A DNA stretch of 64,000 bases, taken from assembly GCA_963707635.1 (NCBI GenBank), contig OY970173.1, forward strand, positions 1,984,001-2,048,000. Reading direction: 5' to 3'. The position numbers were made by a program, and so were the translations under genes. Origin of the DNA: Candidatus Latescibacterota bacterium. Its GTDB lineage: Bacteria; Krumholzibacteriota; Krumholzibacteriia; WVZY01; JAKEHA01. The notes beneath the pieces were generated by a model that was not told the origin of the DNA, made no database searches, and worked only from the letters and a program-made list of their open reading frames with translations. Shown here piece by piece: positions 5,535 to 36,632 of the stretch; position 1 is the stretch's first letter; each line of letters begins with the position of its first letter.

Positions 5535-6154
5535 CCCCGGTGTTGCTGACGGCGCTGGCGGGCTACCTGGTCGGCGGGATTCCGTTCAGCTATGTCGCGG
5601 GCCGCATGCGGGGCCTCGACCTGCGCCGGCACGGGAGTGGAAACCTGGGCGCGTCGAATACCTACCGGATCCTCGGTGGGCGGATCGCGCTGGCGGTGCT
5701 CGTGCTCGACGTCGCCAAGGGACTTGGTCCGGTGCTGGTCGCGAAGCAATTCGACGCGCCGGGGAGCGCGCCGGTTCACGCGCTCGCGGCGGCGGCCGGG
5801 GCGATTCTCGGCCACCTCTTTTCGCCGTATCTCAAGTTTTCGGGCGGAAAGGGAATCGCCACCAGCGCGGGCGCGTTTGCCGGCCTCACGCCGTGGGCCT
5901 TCGCCTGCGCGCTGACCGTGTTTGCGGCCGTGTTTGCGGCGCGCCGGATCGTCTCGCTCGCGAGTCTGTGCGGCGCGATCACGCTTCCGCTCGGGGTGTG
6001 GCTGGCGGAGCGCGCGGGACTGGCCGAACCGCACGCGTCCCTGCTCTGGGTCACCACCTTGGTGATGCTGGTCGTGGTTTTCAAGCACCGCGGGAATATC
6101 CGCCGTTTGCTCGCCGGCACCGAACCCGCGCTCGCGCGCCGCAAGGACGGGTGA
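5531..6154 (+). CDS. plsY: Glycerol-3-phosphate acyltransferase PlsY
   Basis: HGSGNLGASN, LDVAKG, GHLFS..FSGGKGIAT, HRGNIRRL; GTG start overlaps the der stop. Confidence 0.96.
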   Translation: MTPVLLTALAGYLVGGIPFSYVAGRMRGLDLRRHGSGNLGASNTYRILGGRIALAVLVLDVAKGLGPVLVAKQFDAPGSAPVHALAAAAGAILGHLFSPYLKFSGGKGIATSAGAFAGLTPWAFACALTVFAAVFAARRIVSLASLCGAITLPLGVWLAERAGLAEPHASLLWVTTLVMLVVVFKHRGNIRRLLAGTEPALARRKDG

Positions 6155-6158
6155 GCGC

Positions 6159-7196
6159 GTGCGCGCCGGGGTTCTGGGGGCCGGGGGCTGGGGCACGACG
6201 CTGGCGATCGTGCTCGCGGAGAACGACCGCGAGGTGGTCCTGTGGGATCGCGACCCGGCGCGCGCGGAAGCGACCCGCCGGGGGCGGGAGAACGCGACCT
6301 TCCTCCCCGGGGTCGAGTTGCCGGAACGGATCGATGTCACCAGCCGTCTGGGCGAGGCGGTGGCGGGCATGGCCATGGTGGTGTTCGTGGTGCCGTCGCA
6401 CACGATGCGCTCCACGGCAGCGGCGGTGCGCGAGTCGGGCTCGCCCGGCGGCCGCGCGCTGATCGTGAGCGCCACCAAGGGGCTGGAGGAAGGGACGCTC
6501 TGCCGCATGAGCGAGGTGTTGCGCGACGAGCTCCGCGTCGACGCGGGCCGGATCGTGAGCCTCGCCGGGCCCAGCCACGCCGAGGAAGTGAGCCGCCGCG
6601 TGCCGACGTCGATCGTCGCGGCGGGCGTGGACGAGGGGGTGTGCCGCGAGGTGCAGGAGGCGTTCGTGCGGCCGTACCTGCGCGTCTACACCAACGACGA
6701 CATCGTCGGCGTCGAGCTCGCGACCGGGTTGAAGAACTCGATCGCCATCGCCGCCGGGATTCTCGACGGGCTCGGCTGCGGGGACAACACCAAAGCCGCG
6801 CTGGTCACGCGCGGCCTGGCCGAGATCACGAGGCTCGGGCTGGCGCTGGGGGCCAGGGGCGAGACCTTTTCGGGTCTTGCGGGGGTGGGGGACCTCGTGG
6901 TTACCTGTTTGAGTCGCCACAGCCGCAACCGTCGCGTCGGGGAAGCGATCGGTCGCGGGCAGTCGCTGGAGGAAGCGCTGTCTGGAATGGTGATGGTGGC
7001 GGAAGGTGTGCGCACCACGCGCGCCGCCGTCGAGCTCGGTCGCAGGCACGGGGTGGAATTGCCCATCATCGAGATGGTGCACCGCGTGCTGTTCGAAGGG
7101 CACGACCCGCGCGAAGCCGTCCAGATGCTGATGACGCGCCCGCCTCGCGCCGAAACGCGCGACGCCACGCGGAGCGCCAAGGGAGGACGCGCATGA
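6159..7196 (+). CDS. gpsA: NAD(P)H-dependent glycerol-3-phosphate dehydrogenase
   Basis: GAGGWGT, TKGLE, GPSHAEEV, LKNSIAIAAG, GDLVVTC..SRN. Confidence 0.97.
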   Translation: MRAGVLGAGGWGTTLAIVLAENDREVVLWDRDPARAEATRRGRENATFLPGVELPERIDVTSRLGEAVAGMAMVVFVVPSHTMRSTAAAVRESGSPGGRALIVSATKGLEEGTLCRMSEVLRDELRVDAGRIVSLAGPSHAEEVSRRVPTSIVAAGVDEGVCREVQEAFVRPYLRVYTNDDIVGVELATGLKNSIAIAAGILDGLGCGDNTKAALVTRGLAEITRLGLALGARGETFSGLAGVGDLVVTCLSRHSRNRRVGEAIGRGQSLEEALSGMVMVAEGVRTTRAAVELGRRHGVELPIIEMVHRVLFEGHDPREAVQMLMTRPPRAETRDATRSAKGGRA

Positions 7197-18091: not shown

Positions 18092-18970
18092 ATGGCCGAC
18101 GAACGCCTGAAGCCCGCACCCAAGGACGACGCGCGCGAGCCGTCGTACGACATCCAGGCGCGCTACCTCGCGGAAATCGGGCGCTATCATCTCCTGACCG
18201 CCGAGGAAGAGATTGAATTGGGCCGGCGGCTGGCGAACGGCGACGAAGAGGCCCGCCGCCACCTGATCAACTCCAACCTGCGCCTGGTCGTCACCATCGC
18301 GAAGCGCTACGCGCACCGCGGGCAAACCCTCCTGGACCTGATCGAAGACGGCAACCTCGGCCTGATCCGAGCGGCCACGAAATTCGACTACACCAAGGGA
18401 TTCCGCTTCAGCACCTACGCGTCGTACTGGATCAAGCAGTCGATTCGCCGCGGCGTGGCCAGCCAGTCGCGGCCGTTGCGCATCCCGGTGCACATCTTTC
18501 ATCTGATCAACCGGTACGTGAAGGCGGAGGAACGGCTGCGCACCAAGGGGAAAGCCACGGACGACGAGTCGATGGCGGCGGAGCTGGATGTGAGCGTGCG
18601 CCGGGTCAAGCTGGCGCGCACGCTCGTCGCCGGCATCCGCTCCGAGGACCCGCTGCAGAGCGCCGACGCGCTTCAGCAGCTGGCGTCGGACCCGTACCAC
18701 CTGCACAACGGCTCGCCCGAGGCGCTGGTGACGCTCCAGCTCGAGAACAACGAGATCGCGGATCTGTTCGAGCGCTGCTTGAGCCCGCGCGAACAGGAAG
18801 TCTTGACGCTCCGCTACGGCCTGGCCGACGGGGAGCCGAAGACGCTGGGCGAAGCGGGCCGCGAGGTGGGCGTGTCGCGCGAGCGCGTGCGCCAGATCGA
18901 AAAGCGCGCGCTCCAGAAGCTCAACATCGTGCTCTCGAGCGGCGGCCGCCGGGAAGGCTCGCCGGAATGA
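18092..18970 (+). CDS. Sigma-70 family factor lacking region 1.1 (RpoS-like by synteny)
   Basis: YLAEIGRYHLLTAEEE, NLRLVVTIAKRY, GFRFSTYA, VSRERVRQIE; surE-pcm-sigma-apt order. Confidence 0.92.
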   Translation: MADERLKPAPKDDAREPSYDIQARYLAEIGRYHLLTAEEEIELGRRLANGDEEARRHLINSNLRLVVTIAKRYAHRGQTLLDLIEDGNLGLIRAATKFDYTKGFRFSTYASYWIKQSIRRGVASQSRPLRIPVHIFHLINRYVKAEERLRTKGKATDDESMAAELDVSVRRVKLARTLVAGIRSEDPLQSADALQQLASDPYHLHNGSPEALVTLQLENNEIADLFERCLSPREQEVLTLRYGLADGEPKTLGEAGREVGVSRERVRQIEKRALQKLNIVLSSGGRREGSPE

Positions 18971-23215: not shown

Positions 23216-24367
23216 TCAGCGCGGCGGCAGCGTGTCCCGGAAGAAACGCTCCGCGTTCAATCCCATCACCCGCGCGATCTCCTCATCGGAGAATCCCTCC
23301 TGCACCAGCGCGTCCGTGAGGAGCGCGAGCCCGCTCGCGTCGAACGGCGTCCGCACCGCTCCGTCGAAGTCCGACCCGATTGCCACGTGCTCGATTCCGG
23401 CGACCGACACACCGCGCCGGATCGCGCGCGCAATCGCGCGCGCGTCCTCCCCGCACACGGCGGCGTTCCAGAACCCGATCGCGATCAGGCCGCCGTGCGC
23501 CGCAATGCGCGCCAGCTGGTCGTCGGACAGGTTGCGGGGGCCCGGGCAGGTCGACTGCACGCCGGTGTGGGAGACCAGGACCGGCCGCGTGGTTGCCGCG
23601 AGCACGTCGTCGACCGTCGCGGGAGACGCGTGGGCGAGGTCGATGACCCCGCCGAGGGAATCGATGCGCGCCACCACCCGGCGGCCAAACGGCGACAACC
23701 CGCGTCGGCGCCAGCCGTGCGCGGAGCCGCCGACGTCGTTGTCGAACATGTGGGCGATTCCGAAGACGCGAAAGCCGTCGGCAAACAGCGTGTCGACGCG
23801 CGCGAGGTCGCGGGCGACGGGGTGGAGGCCTTCGAGCAGGAGGATGGCTCCGACGGCGTGCCCCGCGGCGAGAGCATCCAGGCCGGCGCGCGTGGTGACG
23901 AGCGAGAGCGCCCCGTCCGAGGCCGCGACCGCGCGCGCGAGCTTCTGCGCCTGAAATCGAGCGCGGGCGAACGGGTCGAACCAGGTGCGCCGCGGCCAGT
24001 GCTGCATCACCGCCAGCGGCGTCATGACGTCGACGACATTGGGCGTGCGCCGGTAATTGGCGGCGATGGGGTTTCTGGTCGGCACCGAGAACACCTGGAG
24101 CGCGACGTGGCCGTCGACGAGGCGGGGAAGGTCGACGTGTCCGCGCGACGAACGAATCAGCAGGTCCCGGTCCCACAGCAGCGCGTCGCAGTGCAGGTCG
24201 GCGATACGCAGGCGCGCGTGCAGCGCGCGCGCGCGCGGCGTGACCTCGGGAGACGCGGTCGCATAGGTGGAGTTGAGCTGTGCGTCGACCCGGTGGGCAA
24301 GGGAACGTCCGCCGAGCCACGCGGCGCCGGCGGCGAGGACGATCACGACGAGATAGCGCCAGAGCAC
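23216..24367 (-). CDS. Membrane dipeptidase (peptidase M19) with N-terminal anchor
   Basis: ADLHCD, LEG, DLAHAS, SHTG, RNLSD, IGSDFDG; start re-assigned to GTG 24367 because the longer ORF runs through a terminated RNA. Confidence 0.88.
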   Translation of the reverse strand: MLWRYLVVIVLAAGAAWLGGRSLAHRVDAQLNSTYATASPEVTPRARALHARLRIADLHCDALLWDRDLLIRSSRGHVDLPRLVDGHVALQVFSVPTRNPIAANYRRTPNVVDVMTPLAVMQHWPRRTWFDPFARARFQAQKLARAVAASDGALSLVTTRAGLDALAAGHAVGAILLLEGLHPVARDLARVDTLFADGFRVFGIAHMFDNDVGGSAHGWRRRGLSPFGRRVVARIDSLGGVIDLAHASPATVDDVLAATTRPVLVSHTGVQSTCPGPRNLSDDQLARIAAHGGLIAIGFWNAAVCGEDARAIARAIRRGVSVAGIEHVAIGSDFDGAVRTPFDASGLALLTDALVQEGFSDEEIARVMGLNAERFFRDTLPPR

Positions 24368-24397
24368 GGCGGGGATGGTAACACCGCGGGACCGCGC

Positions 24398-24531
24398 AAA
24401 AAAAAGAACGAGAGTAGTTCCCCCAACTGCCGTGACGCTAGCGCCCGTCAAGGCCCATGCGGCAACCGCTTCGCTGTCCAATAGCTTGCGAGCAGGACGC
24501 GCACGTACAGGCGAGGGAGTACTCTCGTTGC
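24398..24531 (-). ncRNA. Candidate structured non-coding RNA (~130 nt), family not recognised
   Basis: Ends pair perfectly over 10 bp (24407-24416 with 24520-24529); internal stems; followed by T8; upstream sigma70 promoter. Confidence 0.6.
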
Positions 24532-24539
24532 GAAGAGGG

Positions 24540-24569
24540 AGTATAGTCAGCGACAGGCGAGATTGTCAA
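24540..24569 (-). promoter_or_regulatory. Strong putative sigma70 promoter
   Basis: Minus strand TTGACA-N18-TATACT. Confidence 0.75.
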
Positions 24570-24729
24570 TGATGCCACAATGAATGATCATACTGGCAGG
24601 ACGCCTTGATCCTAGTTTCACATGAGAAGTCAGATTAAGATGACCCGGAGGAGGGGAAGGGGAGAGAGGCTGCGGTGTTCCCAGGTGTCGCGCCTTGTCG
24701 AGCGGGCATCCAGGAACACCGCTCGGGCG

Positions 24730-24777
24730 TTAACGCCTTCTAAGAAACCAGAGCAAATCAATGAGTTCGATCCGCAT
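24730..24777 (-). CDS. Candidate 15-aa micropeptide MRIELIDLLWFLRRR
   Basis: SD AAGGGGGTG 5 nt before ATG, TAA stop, sigma54-type promoter upstream, GC hairpin downstream; below the ORF-track cutoff. Confidence 0.55.
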   Translation of the reverse strand: MRIELIDLLWFLRRR

Positions 24778-24855
24778 GTGGGCACCCCCTTTTCGAGAGT
24801 CACCGGATTAACTCATCGGCGCGGACGCCTATCGGCGTCGCGTCGTGGCGGATCG

Positions 24856-24871
24856 TGCATACCTTGTGCCC
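24856..24871 (-). promoter_or_regulatory. Putative sigma54 (-24/-12) promoter
   Basis: GGGCACAAGGTATGCA: GG-N10-GC with GGCAC and TGCA. Confidence 0.6.
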
Positions 24872-24911: not shown

Positions 24912-27425
24912 TTAACTGGCTTTGCGATATGCAATTACGCTCGTGATGTCATCTTCCTGATTGCCCCCTCCGAAGGCCAGGACGTTCTCAAGCAGTGCAT
25001 TCTGCAGGGCCTGGGCCGGTAGGTTTCGATTCGCCCGCAGGAACGCAATCAGCCGCTCCTCGCCATAAAGCTCGCCGTCGGGGCTGCGCTGCTCGGTGAC
25101 CCCGTCGGTATAGAGGAGAAGCAGGTCGCCGGGCCGGAAGGACACCGTCCCCTCGTCGTAGCGATGGTGGCGGTTCGCTCCCAGCACGGTCCCGCCGTTT
25201 CCCAGCCGGTCGATGAACCCGTTGGTGGCGAACAGCGCCGGGCACTGGCCGGCGCTCGAAAACGTGAAGGTGGATCCGTCGAGGTCGAGCACGCCGCAGA
25301 AAAACGTGGCGAACTGCCCGGGCTTGGCGTGTTCGACGAGGTAGTCGTTGAGCTCCTGATTCAGCTCGGAAGGGGCGAGTCGTCCCTTGAGAGCGCGGTT
25401 CTTGAACACGGCCTGGAGGGACGCCATCAGCATGGCTGCCGGCACCCCTTTTCCAATCACGTCCCCGATTGCCAGCACGACCCGGTGATCGTCGAGGGGG
25501 AAGTAGTCGAAGTAGTCGCCCCCGACCTCGCTCGAGCTGACCATCTGCCCGAGTATCTCGACCCCGCGCAGGTGCGGCGACTCGGCGGGCAGGAGCGCCT
25601 GCTGGATATCGCGGGCCAGCATGACCTCGCTCTTCAGGCGCTCTTTGTCGATGGATGAGCGGATCAGGTCGGCGTTCTCGATCACCAGCGCGAGCTGGTC
25701 CGCGAAGGTCTCCAGGAGGTCGCCGTCCGCGCGCCGGTAGACGAGGCCCGATCGTTTGGGACCGAACAGGGCGAGACCCAGCAGCCGGTCCGGCGCGGCG
25801 ATGGGGACGCACACGGCCAGCGAGGGGACCGCGAGCAGCGAGCGCGAGTCGGCGTCGAGGTGCGGCCGCTCCCAGGAGCGGTCCAGGAATTCCACCATCA
25901 GCGGCGTACGGTAGCGCGTGAGGTATCGGCCGAGGAACGAGTCCGGGTTGAACGACTCCGGCAGCGGTGGGGCGGCCTGGTAGACGCGCTCCCGGCGCAG
26001 GTCGTGCTCTTCGCCCTTCAAGTAGATCGCGACGAAGGAGGGATGCAACAGCGCCTCGCAGCGCTCGAGGAAATGATCCACGATCTCGTCGCGGGTCAGC
26101 GTCCGCGCGACCCGGCGGCCGAAATCGACGACCTCCTGCTGGTAGGTGAATTCCACTCGATAGAACATCCGGTCGACGGCGCCCTGGATCCGCTGGCGAA
26201 TGGGCGCGAATACGATCGCCAGCACGAGCACCGCGATCGGCAGCCAGACAAACTCGCTGACGCCGAACTGGCGGGAGAGGAACGCGCCGGCGGTCTGCAC
26301 GACGACGTAGTAGCCCGCCGCGAGCACGCCGGTGAGCACCGCGTACACGAGGCTCTTGCGCACCACCGTATCCAGCTCGATCGCCCCGTGCTTGAGAATG
26401 GCGTAGGCGAACGTGATCGGCACGAACCCGAGGCAAAGCGCGGTGAGGATGGTCGCCGAGTCCGCCGACCCGGGGCGTATGGCTGAGTAGAGCGTGGCCG
26501 CGAGGAAGGGGCCCAGACCGACGACGGTGCCTGCGATTACGACGCGGAGTTTCTGCTTCTGCGCGCCGGGAGCCGTTCGGTAGGACCGGATGACGATCAC
26601 CAGCGACGCGACCAGGTACGCGGCGAAATACGCGGTCGACAGCGCGAGCACCACCGTTTCCGCGGTCTCGCCCGGCGAGTGGAAGCTGAAGCGGCGCACG
26701 GTGACGAACGCGCTGACGGCGAGGATCGCCACCGGCGGCAGGTAAAGCCACACCGAGCGCCGCACGGGCGATCCGTTTTCCCGCGGCCCCCGGTCCGGAA
26801 AGCGCAGGAAGAAGTGGAGCAGTACCGCGGGGAAGAGGAGCATGACCGCGTCCCAGAAGAGTTCGCCGCCCAGCTGGAAGGCGGTGCTCTCCGTGGACGG
26901 GCGGTCGGTCAGGAAAAATGCGAGCATCCACGAGTTCACAGTGAAGAGCGTGCCCAGCACGTCGTTGCGCCGGACGAAAACCCCGAGCCCGACGGCCAGG
27001 AACGCGATCGCGGTCACGAGCAGCACCATGCGCTCGAGCAGGAGGTTCTGGGGCACGGTGGCGTACCGCACCGTCTCGCGCAGTGCGACGCCGTGGCGGT
27101 GGAGCTCGTACGTCTGCGGCGCGTGCGCGGCGTTGCGGGTGACCGCACTCTGGTAATGGGCGCGATTGCGAAGGCGCTCGCCGTCCACGGCGACGATCAC
27201 GTCGCCGGGCTGAATGTTCGCGGAGGCGTTGGGGCCGTCGGCGGCGACACGCTGCACGACGAGGTTACGGGTCTCGATGCCGGAATACGGCGCACTCCAG
27301 CGCTCGCGCAGCCCGGGGAACTCGAGGACCACGACGGCCAGGAGGAAGAGCAGCAGCGTCGGCCGGAAAACCGAGGCGATTCGGTGATGGGTGCGGGCCG
27401 GTTGGGCCCTGGACGGCGAGTTCAC
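24912..27425 (-). CDS. PP2C/SpoIIE-family phosphatase with PDZ, multi-TM sensor and GAF domains
   Basis: IQPGDVIVAVDG PDZ; several TM helices; ARDIQQALLP, VGGDYFD, GDVIGKG, YTDGVTE, DDIT; GTG start after GGAGG. Confidence 0.92.
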   Translation of the reverse strand: MNSPSRAQPARTHHRIASVFRPTLLLFLLAVVVLEFPGLRERWSAPYSGIETRNLVVQRVAADGPNASANIQPGDVIVAVDGERLRNRAHYQSAVTRNAAHAPQTYELHRHGVALRETVRYATVPQNLLLERMVLLVTAIAFLAVGLGVFVRRNDVLGTLFTVNSWMLAFFLTDRPSTESTAFQLGGELFWDAVMLLFPAVLLHFFLRFPDRGPRENGSPVRRSVWLYLPPVAILAVSAFVTVRRFSFHSPGETAETVVLALSTAYFAAYLVASLVIVIRSYRTAPGAQKQKLRVVIAGTVVGLGPFLAATLYSAIRPGSADSATILTALCLGFVPITFAYAILKHGAIELDTVVRKSLVYAVLTGVLAAGYYVVVQTAGAFLSRQFGVSEFVWLPIAVLVLAIVFAPIRQRIQGAVDRMFYRVEFTYQQEVVDFGRRVARTLTRDEIVDHFLERCEALLHPSFVAIYLKGEEHDLRRERVYQAAPPLPESFNPDSFLGRYLTRYRTPLMVEFLDRSWERPHLDADSRSLLAVPSLAVCVPIAAPDRLLGLALFGPKRSGLVYRRADGDLLETFADQLALVIENADLIRSSIDKERLKSEVMLARDIQQALLPAESPHLRGVEILGQMVSSSEVGGDYFDYFPLDDHRVVLAIGDVIGKGVPAAMLMASLQAVFKNRALKGRLAPSELNQELNDYLVEHAKPGQFATFFCGVLDLDGSTFTFSSAGQCPALFATNGFIDRLGNGGTVLGANRHHRYDEGTVSFRPGDLLLLYTDGVTEQRSPDGELYGEERLIAFLRANRNLPAQALQNALLENVLAFGGGNQEDDITSVIAYRKAS

Positions 27426-27527
27426 CGGTGTCCTCCGAGCGGGTGCGGGATCGGGGTGGATGAAGCGTGAGGACCCGGCGCACGCGGTGTCAACGGTTTT
27501 CACCGTCGGGGGCGGCCGAGGAAGCGC

Positions 27528-33143: not shown

Positions 33144-34577
<1,434 letters not shown>

Positions 34578-36632
34578 GGTGCACCTGCTTTACGGGTAAA
34601 TAGACCGAGAACGTCGTCCCCACGCCGTACTCGCTATCGACATAGATATAGCCTCCGTGGCGCTCGATGATACCGTGCGTCACATAGAGTCCCAGCCCGG
34701 TGCCGCCCGCCTTCTTGGAAAAGAACGGCTCGAACACGCGCTGCCGGTCCTCTTCGGTGAGGCCCAACCCGTTGTCGCGCACACGGATAATAGCAAAATC
34801 ACCCACCCCGTCAAACAGAACGTCCGGCACCTCCCGGGCGAAGGTGACCGCTATCCCAACCTCGGCGCCCGGCGCGCTGGCCTCGATGGCGTTTTTCAGC
34901 AGGTTGATCAGCACCTGCGTGATGCGGTCGGCGTCGACCACGATGCCGCGCGGCGTCTCGGGGAACTCGGTGAGCACGGAAACCCCCTTGCGCTTGGCCA
35001 GTTCCGCCATGCTGGCGATGCTGTTGCGGGTGAGGAGCTCGAGCGAGGTTTCCTCGTAGATCAAGTCGCTGACCCGCACCACGCTCATCAGGTCGCCGAT
35101 CAGGCGATCGATACGCTTGACCTCGTCGAGGATGAAATGAATGTTCTCCCGCTGGCTGTCCGCCACCTGCCCCGCCCGCTGCAGGTACTGGATCCCGGCC
35201 GCGATCCCGGTGAGCGGGTTGCGGATCTCGTGCGCGATGCTGGACGAGAACCGCCCGAGCGCCGCCAGCTTGTCGAGCTGCGCGATCTGTTCCTCCATGC
35301 GCTTCTGCCGGGCGATGTCGTTGAACACGGCCAGCGCGCCCTGCGGTTGCTTCTTTTCGTCGAAGAGCAGCGAGGTATTGAGCAGGATGGGATCCTTGGC
35401 GCCGCCGTTCTTGAGCAGCCACGCCTCCTGCTGGAAGGCCTTGCGTCCGGTTCGCAGCGTGCGCATGACCGGATTCTCGCCGGTGCCGACGGGGCTGTCG
35501 AGGATCAGCGCCTCCACGTGGCGGCCGCGCAGTTCCGACTCCGAGTAGCCGGTGAGCGCCTGCGCCCGGTGGTTGGCAAACAGCACCGCGCCCCGTTCGT
35601 CGACGGTGATGAGTCCGTTCATCATGCTGTTGATGACGTCGTCGCGGAAGCGCTCCTCCTGCTGCAGTTCCGTGAACAGGCGGTTGTTCTCGAGCATCGT
35701 GCCCAGCTGGACGGCGAGGGTTTCCACCGAGACCAGGTCGACGCGGCTCAAGGAGGCGGCCTTGAAGCCGTCGGTCACGCCGAGCAGGCCCAGCACCGGC
35801 ACGCGCCCGCAGCCGGGGCACACGTAACCGTGCTCGATCGACCACGCCTCGCGCTGGACCTGCGTCGTCTGCAGGATGCAGTCGGGACGATTCGCGCAGC
35901 CCTGGGTGGCCCCGCTCTTGACGAGTGGCACGACGATGTAGGACGTCATCGTGCTGTCGCGAAACAGCGACTGGCCTTCGACGGTGCCCACCGGGTGCAT
36001 CTGCGGATCGCGGATCAGCACCGACTGGTGCATCTGCACCGACTTCTTGAGCAGGCCGTCCAGGCCCGCCAGTGGCAGGCGTGCCTGCTGGTGGATGTGG
36101 CCCTCCGGGGTGTCACGAAACACGTAGATGTTGAACGCCTCGGCCTCGGGGTCGTAGAGGCCGACGAACAGCTCGCGGTACCCGAGCCCCTTGGACAGGA
36201 AATTAATGACGGCGTCGACCACCTTCGACTCGTCGAGCGACGACACCAGTGTGAGCCCGATCTCCTTGATGCTCAATAGCTGGATGTTCTTTTCGACCAG
36301 CTGGAAGTTCTTTCGCTCCAGCTCGGTCGCGACCTCCTTGAGGGCCTTGTAGACGGCGCTGCCGACGTCACCCGGCCGCACCTGGCTCAATTCCCCGATG
36401 GCGTCACCGTGGATCTGGCGAATGCCGTCGAGGACGCTCTGGTAGCGGGCGCGGACGGTGCGGGACTCGGCGACGACGTAGGCGATGGCGAGCGCGATCG
36501 CGACCGGGATGAACGCCCACCACGGGAGCACACGCGCGAGCGCGGCCACGCCGAGCGTCCCCAGCGCGATGCCGACGAGCACGCGGCGGCGCGGAATATA
36601 GCTGGCGATGGCCACCGGTCAGACCCCGCGCG

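Follow-up and report, generated by a model that had tools for sequence, protein, structure and literature searches.

Introduction

The described systems closest to the locus analysed here pair a small peptide gene with the gene of its receptor. In comQXPA, the receptor ComP consists of a first transmembrane helix (TM1), a PDZ domain (residues 27-111), ten transmembrane (TM) helices up to residue 387, an alpha/beta part and a kinase, as described in the accessible part of PMC9620489; the census of such systems, in the part available, records none outside the Firmicutes (PMC4008528). Type-II ComS precursors are reported, in the accessible text of PMC5131902, to have a variable N-terminus and a C-terminal WW, and to be encoded by a small ORF directly downstream of the receptor gene. 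Short signalling peptides are also encoded by phages, as in the arbitrium (AimP-AimR) and Rap-Phr systems, some of them being host-derived, and these phages carry their own receptors (PMC13389391, in the part available). For phosphatases of the RsbU, SiaA and RssB type, our literature search found no description of a peptide ligand. MgrB and the type I toxins Ibs, TisB and Ldr, in turn, are short hydrophobic peptides with a basic C-terminus.

The window (the whole 64,000-nt stretch of DNA under analysis) contains a locus for which an earlier note had proposed a sigma54-driven micropeptide with a structured mRNA. Each element quoted there (promoter, Shine-Dalgarno sequence (SD), ORF, ACTCTC, clamp strands, stems and C/U tract) was found at its minus-strand position, and the locus comprises the following features.

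24912..27503, minus strand: TM1-PDZ-multi-TM (HisKA_7TM-like)-GAF-PP2C/SpoIIE phosphatase, the putative receptor; true start probably ~26 codons inside the ORF
24871-24856, minus strand: sigma54-type promoter GGGCACAAGGTATGCA, GG-N10-GC (-24 GG / -12 GC), the box being present in 29/29 order-level loci
24816-24804, minus strand: 5'UTR strand of the clamp, pairing with codons 2-6 (24774-24761)
24800-24795, minus strand: pyrimidine anti-SD ACTCTC, directly 5' of the SD
24791-24783, minus strand: SD AAGGGGGTG; G-rich SD in 29/29 loci with upstream DNA
24777-24730, minus strand: micropeptide ORF MRIELIDLLWFLRRR, 15 aa, ending AGA AGG CGT TAA
24672..24722, minus strand: post-stop hairpin, located 6-9 nt past the stop codon, with almost no variation in this order
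24670-24647, minus strand: C/U-rich tail, a possible Rho site or alternative SD partner

Judged by anatomy, the peptide locus resembles both ComX/ComP and ComS/XIP and is a member of neither. As in comQXPA, a small peptide gene lies beside a receptor-like gene, a Trp occurs within 5-10 residues of the C-terminus (available part of PMC4008528), and the phosphatase is predicted to expose an extracellular PDZ domain between its first two TM helices, with a multi-TM bundle behind. The receptor order of TM1, PDZ, about nine further TM helices, alpha/beta part and output, with near-equal lengths, is that of ComP in the accessible part of PMC9620489, a comparison of layout and not of sequence. In contrast to comQXPA, the output domain is PP2C/SpoIIE rather than HisKA_3/HATPase (PF07730/PF02518), the neighbour clusters contain neither a ComQ prenyltransferase nor ComA, and the peptide family occurs outside the Firmicutes; the precursor is mostly 15-22 aa long as against 52-73 in ComX, and its core is conserved where that of ComX is hypervariable (ComX values from the same part of PMC4008528).

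With type-II ComRS the locus shares a similar precursor size (ComS has 17 aa), the C-terminal WW and lineage-specific variants (PMC5131902, same portion), as well as a WW-ended small ORF directly downstream of a receptor-candidate gene; however, the candidate is a membrane PP2C phosphatase, not a cytoplasmic Rgg/RRNPP protein (ComR), and the peptide has a basic tail after WWL, a sigma54- or sigma28-type promoter and a host that is likely diderm. Like the arbitrium and Rap-Phr peptides, it is a short peptide encoded by phages (PMC13389391, same portion), but no receptor gene was seen beside the phage copies, the variants match host lineages, and Patescibacteria carry copies too. The phosphatase shares with RsbU, SiaA and RssB the SpoIIE catalytic domain, invariant motif aspartates and STAS partners in the genome, whereas its PDZ and 7TM-like sensor and its dedicated peptide gene set it apart. 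Finally, in common with MgrB and the type I toxins the peptide is short and hydrophobic with a basic C-terminus, its mRNA in this order being SD-occluded by prediction; unlike them it has no membrane-spanning stretch and no antisense partner, and it possesses an invariant Asp-x-x-Trp-Trp-Leu core.

A fifteen-codon gene under coding selection

The small ORF (sORF) occupies the gap between the 863-codon ORF with PDZ, HisKA_7TM-like, GAF and SpoIIE domains and an M19 dipeptidase gene. A DNA search matched 32 of 61 genomes (its own included), all from two families of this order, and 30 loci were fetched for the order-level alignment, 29 of them with upstream DNA. The SD, ATG, frame and exact 15-codon length are kept in all 30 loci, and the stop stays in place while its identity varies, TAA, TAG and TGA all being present. 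Over the ten core codons pS is 0.65 and pN 0.094 (pN/pS 0.144; 0.37-12 in the other five frames), and second codon positions are 95% conserved, third positions 74%. These counts bear out the micropeptide postulated in the earlier note, and from them we infer that the sORF is a real coding gene of an undescribed micropeptide, presumably translated. The same note had remarked on atypical codons; AGA at R13 is indeed kept in 23 of 30 loci of this order, against a genome usage of about 0%, but not across the peptide family (1 of 18 in f5/f8; host families are denoted f1 to f9).

The substitution W11F occurs in this genome alone, the other 29 order-level homologues having WW, and the 15-aa forms of this order have a charged N-terminus and no signal sequence. 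Metatranscriptome contigs of relatives cover the sORF (X1, X3, X4) and a neighbouring non-coding RNA (X1, X2, X4); we do not count them as proof of expression because strand, start and level are invisible in them and they may be DNA.

A peptide family in two phyla

We scanned 151 genomes of the phylum with covariance models, built for the sORF region as well as for the neighbouring RNA, and 60 regions fetched around weak matches contained the same peptide family. By its sequence, the micropeptide is a member of an undescribed family, mostly 15-22 aa long, with a D-[LI]-[LF]-W-W-L-[RK] core and lineage-specific tails. The f3 peptides have 20-22 aa and are hydrophobic at the N-terminus, and their genes often carry a terminator-like hairpin; the f5/f8 peptides have 15-18 aa, and those of f6 have 16-18 aa and a C-terminal RD or KD. 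A degenerate motif pattern matched 175 of 208 genomes of Ca. Krumholzibacteriota, nearly always once, a count that includes at least one chance match (G040:C103), and its reversed control matched 8 genomes; the genome under study was itself missed because of its W-to-F change. In the Eisenbacteria phylum the motif is present in 34 of 201 genomes, and in f4 in 0 of 7. Related genomes are not independent samples in these counts.

Among 180 distinct peptides, the core always lies within 0-2 residues of the C-terminus, a position that was a selection criterion for this set but was absent from the viral search pattern. WW is found in 179 of them, the exception being the WF of this genome; 148 are 15-22 aa long and none exceeds 43 aa. 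Tails sort by host family, and length is fixed within families. The longest uncharged run in 172 peptides is at most 15 residues (median 9), none reaching 17. Order-level forms are nearly neutral (GRAVY 0.06-0.2) with a low helical moment, and 12-14 mostly hydrophobic residues precede the Asp in f3, Eisenbacteria and many parasite forms. The Trp codons stand in tandem at positions 10-11 (11-12 in f2); the choice of Arg and stop codons is free over the family as a whole, AGA/AGG being kept in f1-f3.

Pattern matches in cyanobacteria, Pseudomonas, Firmicutes and others were rejected as chance occurrences, inside genes and without SD or phosphatase, and 72 of 122 metagenome pattern matches likewise fell outside the family. 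A text search of the literature with motif strings returned 0 papers, and the literature searched holds no description of the family; supplements, small-protein and sORF catalogues and subscription journals lie outside that search and may list such ORFs.

Promoters and mRNA structure

The sigma54-type promoter proposed in the earlier note is upheld: the box lies 70-83 nt 5' of the ATG in 29/29 order-level loci with upstream DNA, and the genome encodes rpoN and 14 full-length sigma54 activators. Elsewhere, the box was found in 18/18 f5/f8, 9/10 f6 and 19/30 f3 loci. A link to a sigma54 envelope regulon, suggested in the same place, was not established. In f3 (L069-L087, L109-L120), a TAAAG/TCAAG-N13-15-GCCGA box lies upstream of the peptide in 19 of 30 loci; it occurs in 1 of 57 host loci other than f3, and we take it to resemble a sigma28-type promoter. 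Both classes are named after the familiar consensus boxes of sigma28 and sigma54.

The sORF region has a fold z of -2.66. The proposed clamp between the 5'UTR and the early codons is real but confined to this order: in f1 and f2 both strands have undergone changes and still pair (mean z -1.85; z < -2 in 13 of 30), and the pairwise duplexes by which it was detected, into which locus L012 entered with a wrong start, revealed none in f3, f5/f8, f6, Eisenbacteria, phage or Patescibacteria copies. An alignment fold with RNAalifold missed it, a failure that the different ORF registers of f1 and f2 likely explain. The SD is predicted to be mostly paired in every one of the 29 modelled transcripts (unpaired probability 0.01-0.39), its main predicted partner lying 16-23 nt before the ATG in 22 of them. 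To judge from these folding models, the clamp and the anti-SD hairpin probably damp translation in this order.

The post-stop hairpin has 97.7% of cells paired and a single change on both sides; because it is almost invariant, covariation cannot prove it. Other families of the peptide have a different post-stop hairpin, often with a U-run. Both of the mutually exclusive stems described earlier are present at their coordinates in this genome, but the second is possible in only 3 of 30 homologues.

The neighbouring PP2C phosphatase

The phosphatase gene adjoins the peptide/RNA locus in 86 of 89 loci, 83 times upstream on the same strand and three times inverted; the set consists of loci with peptide or RNA and excludes L121, which has no peptide. 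In genus g20 (L122, L123, L128), the peptide cassette still adjoins the phosphatase gene, but in inverted orientation. In the Eisenbacteria phylum the phosphatase is adjacent in 26 of 30 loci. In five f4 genomes the best sensor homologue is not full-length (coverage limited to residues ~251-822) and has no peptide behind it, and in all five motif-negative or doubtful f7/f9 genomes tested a diverged peptide directly follows a full-length phosphatase copy. Four full-length paralogues in f7/f9 are not followed by a peptide, and in three f7 genomes a peptide-less paralogue outscores the peptide-linked copy, so that the presence of the peptide is itself part of the grounds for naming the linked copy the orthologue. 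In another f7 arrangement (L334, L335, L337, L338), a paralogous PDZ-TM-PP2C gene has behind it, in place of the peptide, a gene whose product looks exported, and two of the four loci have a sigma54-type box; this product is possibly an alternative protein ligand.

AF2 models of the phosphatase (pLDDT 83 and 91) comprise TM1, PDZ (36-105), a helix bundle, GAF, a long helix and PP2C. In structure comparisons, the PDZ domain matches those of DegS/HtrA, with DegS, which senses peptides, as best match, and the bundle is closest to GPCR 7TM folds (Z 14.6, rmsd 4.4, 218 aligned), although Z values of 12-14.6 are common among helical bundles and can be reached without kinship. The conserved residues E174 and D178 lie inside a TM helix of the sensor. 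The catalytic domain matches SpoIIE (PF07228, E 5e-48) with invariant metal-binding motif aspartates, and it matches the SiaA and RssB models below cut-off, plus their structures. Furthermore, the genome has 10 STAS-domain matches. An LptE-like gene, recognised by reading, lies in the window, and the host is likely diderm.

The sensor module is widespread, with 3,225 representatives at E <= 0.001; among 52 distant matches scanned, the fused outputs were PP2C, histidine kinase, one Ser/Thr kinase and one TIR. In P0150, P0162, P0179 and others, the TM-PDZ-7TM-like-GAF input is found on PP2C, histidine kinase (with or without PAS), Ser/Thr kinase and TIR. Such other members of the module may have unannotated peptide genes of their own.

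Neighbouring RNA, regulators and gene order

Beyond the phosphatase, four further features accompany the micropeptide.

24540..24569, minus strand: sigma70 promoter of the ncRNA, TTGACA-18-TATACT; -35 box in all 30 loci
24400..24529, minus strand: conserved ncRNA of about 130 nt, absent from Rfam; accompanies the locus in f1, f2, f5 and f6, not f3
33144..36615, minus strand: NtrC-type activator and histidine kinase, 8-12 kb upstream
18092..18970, plus strand: RpoS-like sigma factor, linked beyond the ncRNA in f5/f6/f8 (20 loci)

The tandem ncRNA mentioned in the earlier note is a separate, conserved unit with its own sigma70 promoter. It has a 5'-3' closing stem, a U tail and a highly conserved core, CTCAAGC...AGCGAAGCGGTTGCCGCA..GCCTCTGA (fold z -4.1), and it was found in f1 (13/16), f2 (8/9), f5 (14/33) and f6 (10/10), in f3 (0/61) not at all, and in none of 40 phage (28), Patescibacteria and Eisenbacteria loci. 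Neither the ncRNA nor the sORF locus has an Rfam match at gathering score, and 6S and SRP RNA were rejected as its identity because both lie elsewhere in the genome. Its complementarity to the peptide mRNA is not above that of shuffles (mean z -0.02, 28 pairs); one G-U-rich match of 7 nt does turn up in 27 of 28 pairs, but it is too weak to build on.

The activator/kinase pair, a weak candidate for driving the sigma54 promoter, is linked in most f1, f2, f5, f8 and f9 genomes and present in the peptide-less f4; it was not found with this query in f3, f6 and f7. The RpoS-like factor is a weak candidate for the output of the pathway. The M19 membrane dipeptidase gene (23216-24481, minus strand) is found behind the module in genus g1 alone (14 loci), and its product is possibly a lineage-limited processing enzyme. 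Genes downstream of the peptide vary, with a convergent gene in 27 f3 loci and no conserved same-strand gene, and no dedicated exporter, protease or modifying enzyme was found among the neighbours of the 89 loci. Within the window, the peptide gene has the phosphatase, TPR protein, ncRNA and dipeptidase genes around it and no comQ isoprenyl transferase, and no conserved cluster of that kind appeared among the neighbours of the 89 loci. The surrounding region is generally syntenic (lptE-holA-leuS-like genes, apt, rpoS).

Copies in phages

A pattern requiring neither stop nor SD gave 37 matches in 35 stretches of IMG/VR; 34 of the 37 have a stop 0-2 codons after the motif, 25 of those being SD-led, compared with 17 matches, two with such a stop, for a scrambled-pattern control on viral contigs. 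A Lys-variant pattern contributed five further family copies among nine matches. The 32 viral loci fall into 23 DNA clusters, and their neighbours (115 flanking proteins, PHROGs) include terminases, integrase, primase, recombinases and HNH nucleases; copies L285, L299 and L315 have recombination, Gam-like or integrase genes as neighbours. In the surroundings of the phage copies, none of the flanking genes was seen to be a receptor gene. By nearest host type, the 28 distinct phage peptides divide into 12 f3, six f6, four f1, three f2, two f5/f8 and one Eisenbacteria. Four copies on viral or unclassified metagenome contigs (L293, L387, L453, L494) have 31-38 aa and an N-terminus that by eye is signal-peptide-like.

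Several phage loci have features of their own. Phages L300 and L305 carry two peptide variants in tandem, one f1-like and one f2-like by tail. In L313, a gene for a sigma-70-family factor (5956-6831) lies directly upstream of the peptide copy, its product being only 24% identical to the host RpoS-like protein. The copies of L287, L288/L290, L292 and L296 lie in or by tRNA clusters, the L296 tRNA having the anticodon CUA, and in L295 and L307 the motif is apparently the C-terminus of a longer open frame, not a stand-alone sORF.

Copies in Patescibacteria

The peptide also occurs in genomes of 0.7-1.1 Mb, five of them Patescibacteria/Parcubacteria/Komeilibacteria and two others, of one order. 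In this Patescibacteria order, 15 of 86 genomes match the pattern, ten with SD-led family ORFs and five by chance, and three of the ten carriers have two variants in tandem (L537, L539, L541). In the four regions read (12-16 kb), the copies lie among housekeeping genes and not phage genes, and the seven copies found first are all closest to the f3 host type. Neither a SpoIIE domain nor a sensor homologue was found in the five carriers tested, the genomes of which are incomplete. A divergent single-domain receiver gene lies directly upstream of the peptide in 10/10 carriers (L343:7579-8016, L530-L542), and these receiver domains have only weak matches in this genome.

Proposed function and alternatives

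The reading that we prefer, and that we consider about equally likely to be right or wrong, is that the peptide is an exported ligand of the neighbouring phosphatase, feeding a partner-switch and mimicked by parasites. It is likely a phosphatase signal because of the phylum-wide adjacency together with the copies in unrelated phages and Patescibacteria, and action from outside is preferred because a separate cell without the receptor encodes it. A sigma54 promoter (perhaps sigma28-type in f3) would drive the 15-residue peptide, presumably with sigma54 feedback; the peptide is likely exported, may be trimmed to the C-terminal DLLW(W/F)LR, and would bind the outward-facing PDZ/multi-helix (7TM) sensor predicted at the outer face of the inner membrane. 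The bound sensor would change, in a presumed direction, the dephosphorylation of a STAS anti-anti-sigma factor, and the partner-switch output perhaps controls the linked RpoS-like factor. Phages and Patescibacteria, with the peptide but without the receptor and in host-matched variants, would push the host stress or dormancy switch their way.

Several observations point in this direction: coding selection and fixed length within families; adjacency to the phosphatase, joint absence in f4 and the diverged peptides of f7/f9; the receptor-like anatomy of the models, laid out as in ComP; the STAS-domain matches of the host; the parasite copies; and the signal-peptide-like N-termini of four longer copies. 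The variable N-terminus, invariant C-terminal core, WW and lineage tails are likewise pheromone-like. Against it, no exporter, protease or modifying enzyme is linked, the order-level 15-aa forms have charged N-termini and no signal sequence, and, with a host that is likely diderm, an outside signal must cross an outer membrane. Peptides with a terminal R, K or D are, moreover, atypical PDZ ligands unless trimmed. The GPCR-like Z values lie within the common helical-bundle range, a peptide-less paralogue outscores the linked copy in three f7 genomes, the motif is in just 34/201 Eisenbacteria-phylum genomes, one of the two tryptophans is changed in this genome, and the host match of phages and Patescibacteria comes without independent host assignment. 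Finally, the core is far more conserved across lineages than ComX, which is called 'extremely variable' in the available part of PMC4008528.

The same synteny and co-absence would be expected if the peptide were instead an MgrB-like small membrane protein, never released, that binds the helix bundle of the phosphatase within the inner membrane as a feedback regulator, being made by phages in the infected cell and passed over by Patescibacteria at contact sites. The hydrophobic residues before the Asp in f3, Eisenbacteria and many parasite forms, the WW and basic tail typical of a membrane interface, the conserved acidic residues inside a receptor TM helix and the lack of a linked export gene speak for such a regulator. 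However, no uncharged run reaches 17 residues, the order-level forms are near-neutral in hydropathy with a low helical moment, and receptor-less Patescibacteria copies are harder to explain in this manner; we regard a membrane regulator as unlikely, though worth serious weight.

A further possibility, which we consider improbable, is that the target is another conserved host machine (a kinase, or a membrane protease such as FtsH, the target of lambda CIII) and that adjacency to the phosphatase is inherited gene order. The general synteny of the region, the phage copies by recombination, Gam-like and integrase genes, and the receiver-domain gene rather than a phosphatase beside the Patescibacteria copies would fit such a target, but the adjacency persists in two phyla and through inversion while downstream genes change, and peptide and full-length sensor are jointly absent in f4.

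The type I toxin suggested in the earlier note, considered here with the 130-nt RNA as its antitoxin, now appears very improbable. The small hydrophobic-basic peptide, the SD predicted to be mostly paired, the clamp of this order, the tandem RNA and the phage copies recall such a module, but the antisense check gave no complementarity above shuffles, the RNA is missing from 61 f3 genomes and 40 phage, Patescibacteria and Eisenbacteria loci, the clamp is limited to one order, the peptide is too short to span a membrane, and the gene is single-copy at a fixed chromosomal position across the phylum. The note had also raised an attenuator. A cis-acting leader, be it a Trp- or Arg-sensing attenuator or a ribosome-arrest peptide controlling downstream transcription, recalls the tandem Trp codons, the AGA/AGG kept in f1-f3 and the hairpin 6-9 nt after the stop, but is just as hard to credit with no conserved same-strand gene downstream (the dipeptidase only in g1, a convergent gene in 27 f3 loci), an ncRNA with its own promoter, an alternative stem in 3/30, rare Arg codons and stops that vary freely, and parasite copies in unrelated contexts, some in tandem.

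Significance

Since 23 unrelated phage clusters and a Patescibacteria clade copy the micropeptide, it marks a control point worth hijacking, whatever its target. Returning to the exported ligand of the phosphatase, its fullest form is a tentative picture that we hold somewhat less likely than not to be correct in all its parts: a pheromone system, shared by two uncultured diderm phyla, whose ComP-like PDZ/7TM receptor would drive a PP2C phosphatase rather than a kinase, with lineage pherotypes, the signal having been captured by phages many times and by a Patescibacteria clade once, and host-matched mimics being secreted to control host stress or dormancy. The known cases in which peptides signal to membrane receptors are mainly Gram-positive and work via kinases; here the signal would use a phosphatase, in phyla that are likely diderm. 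If true, a CPR bacterium would be counterfeiting the signal of its host, for which our literature search found no description.

Synthesis of the peptide and expression of the phosphatase are feasible without culturing the organism. The peptide family may offer a lead to the ligands of this widespread orphan sensor, and the micropeptide offers a handle on how CPR epibionts manipulate their hosts and on which hosts these are. Indeed, if the proposal holds, the peptide variant would be a sequence tag that predicts the host lineage of phages and epibionts.
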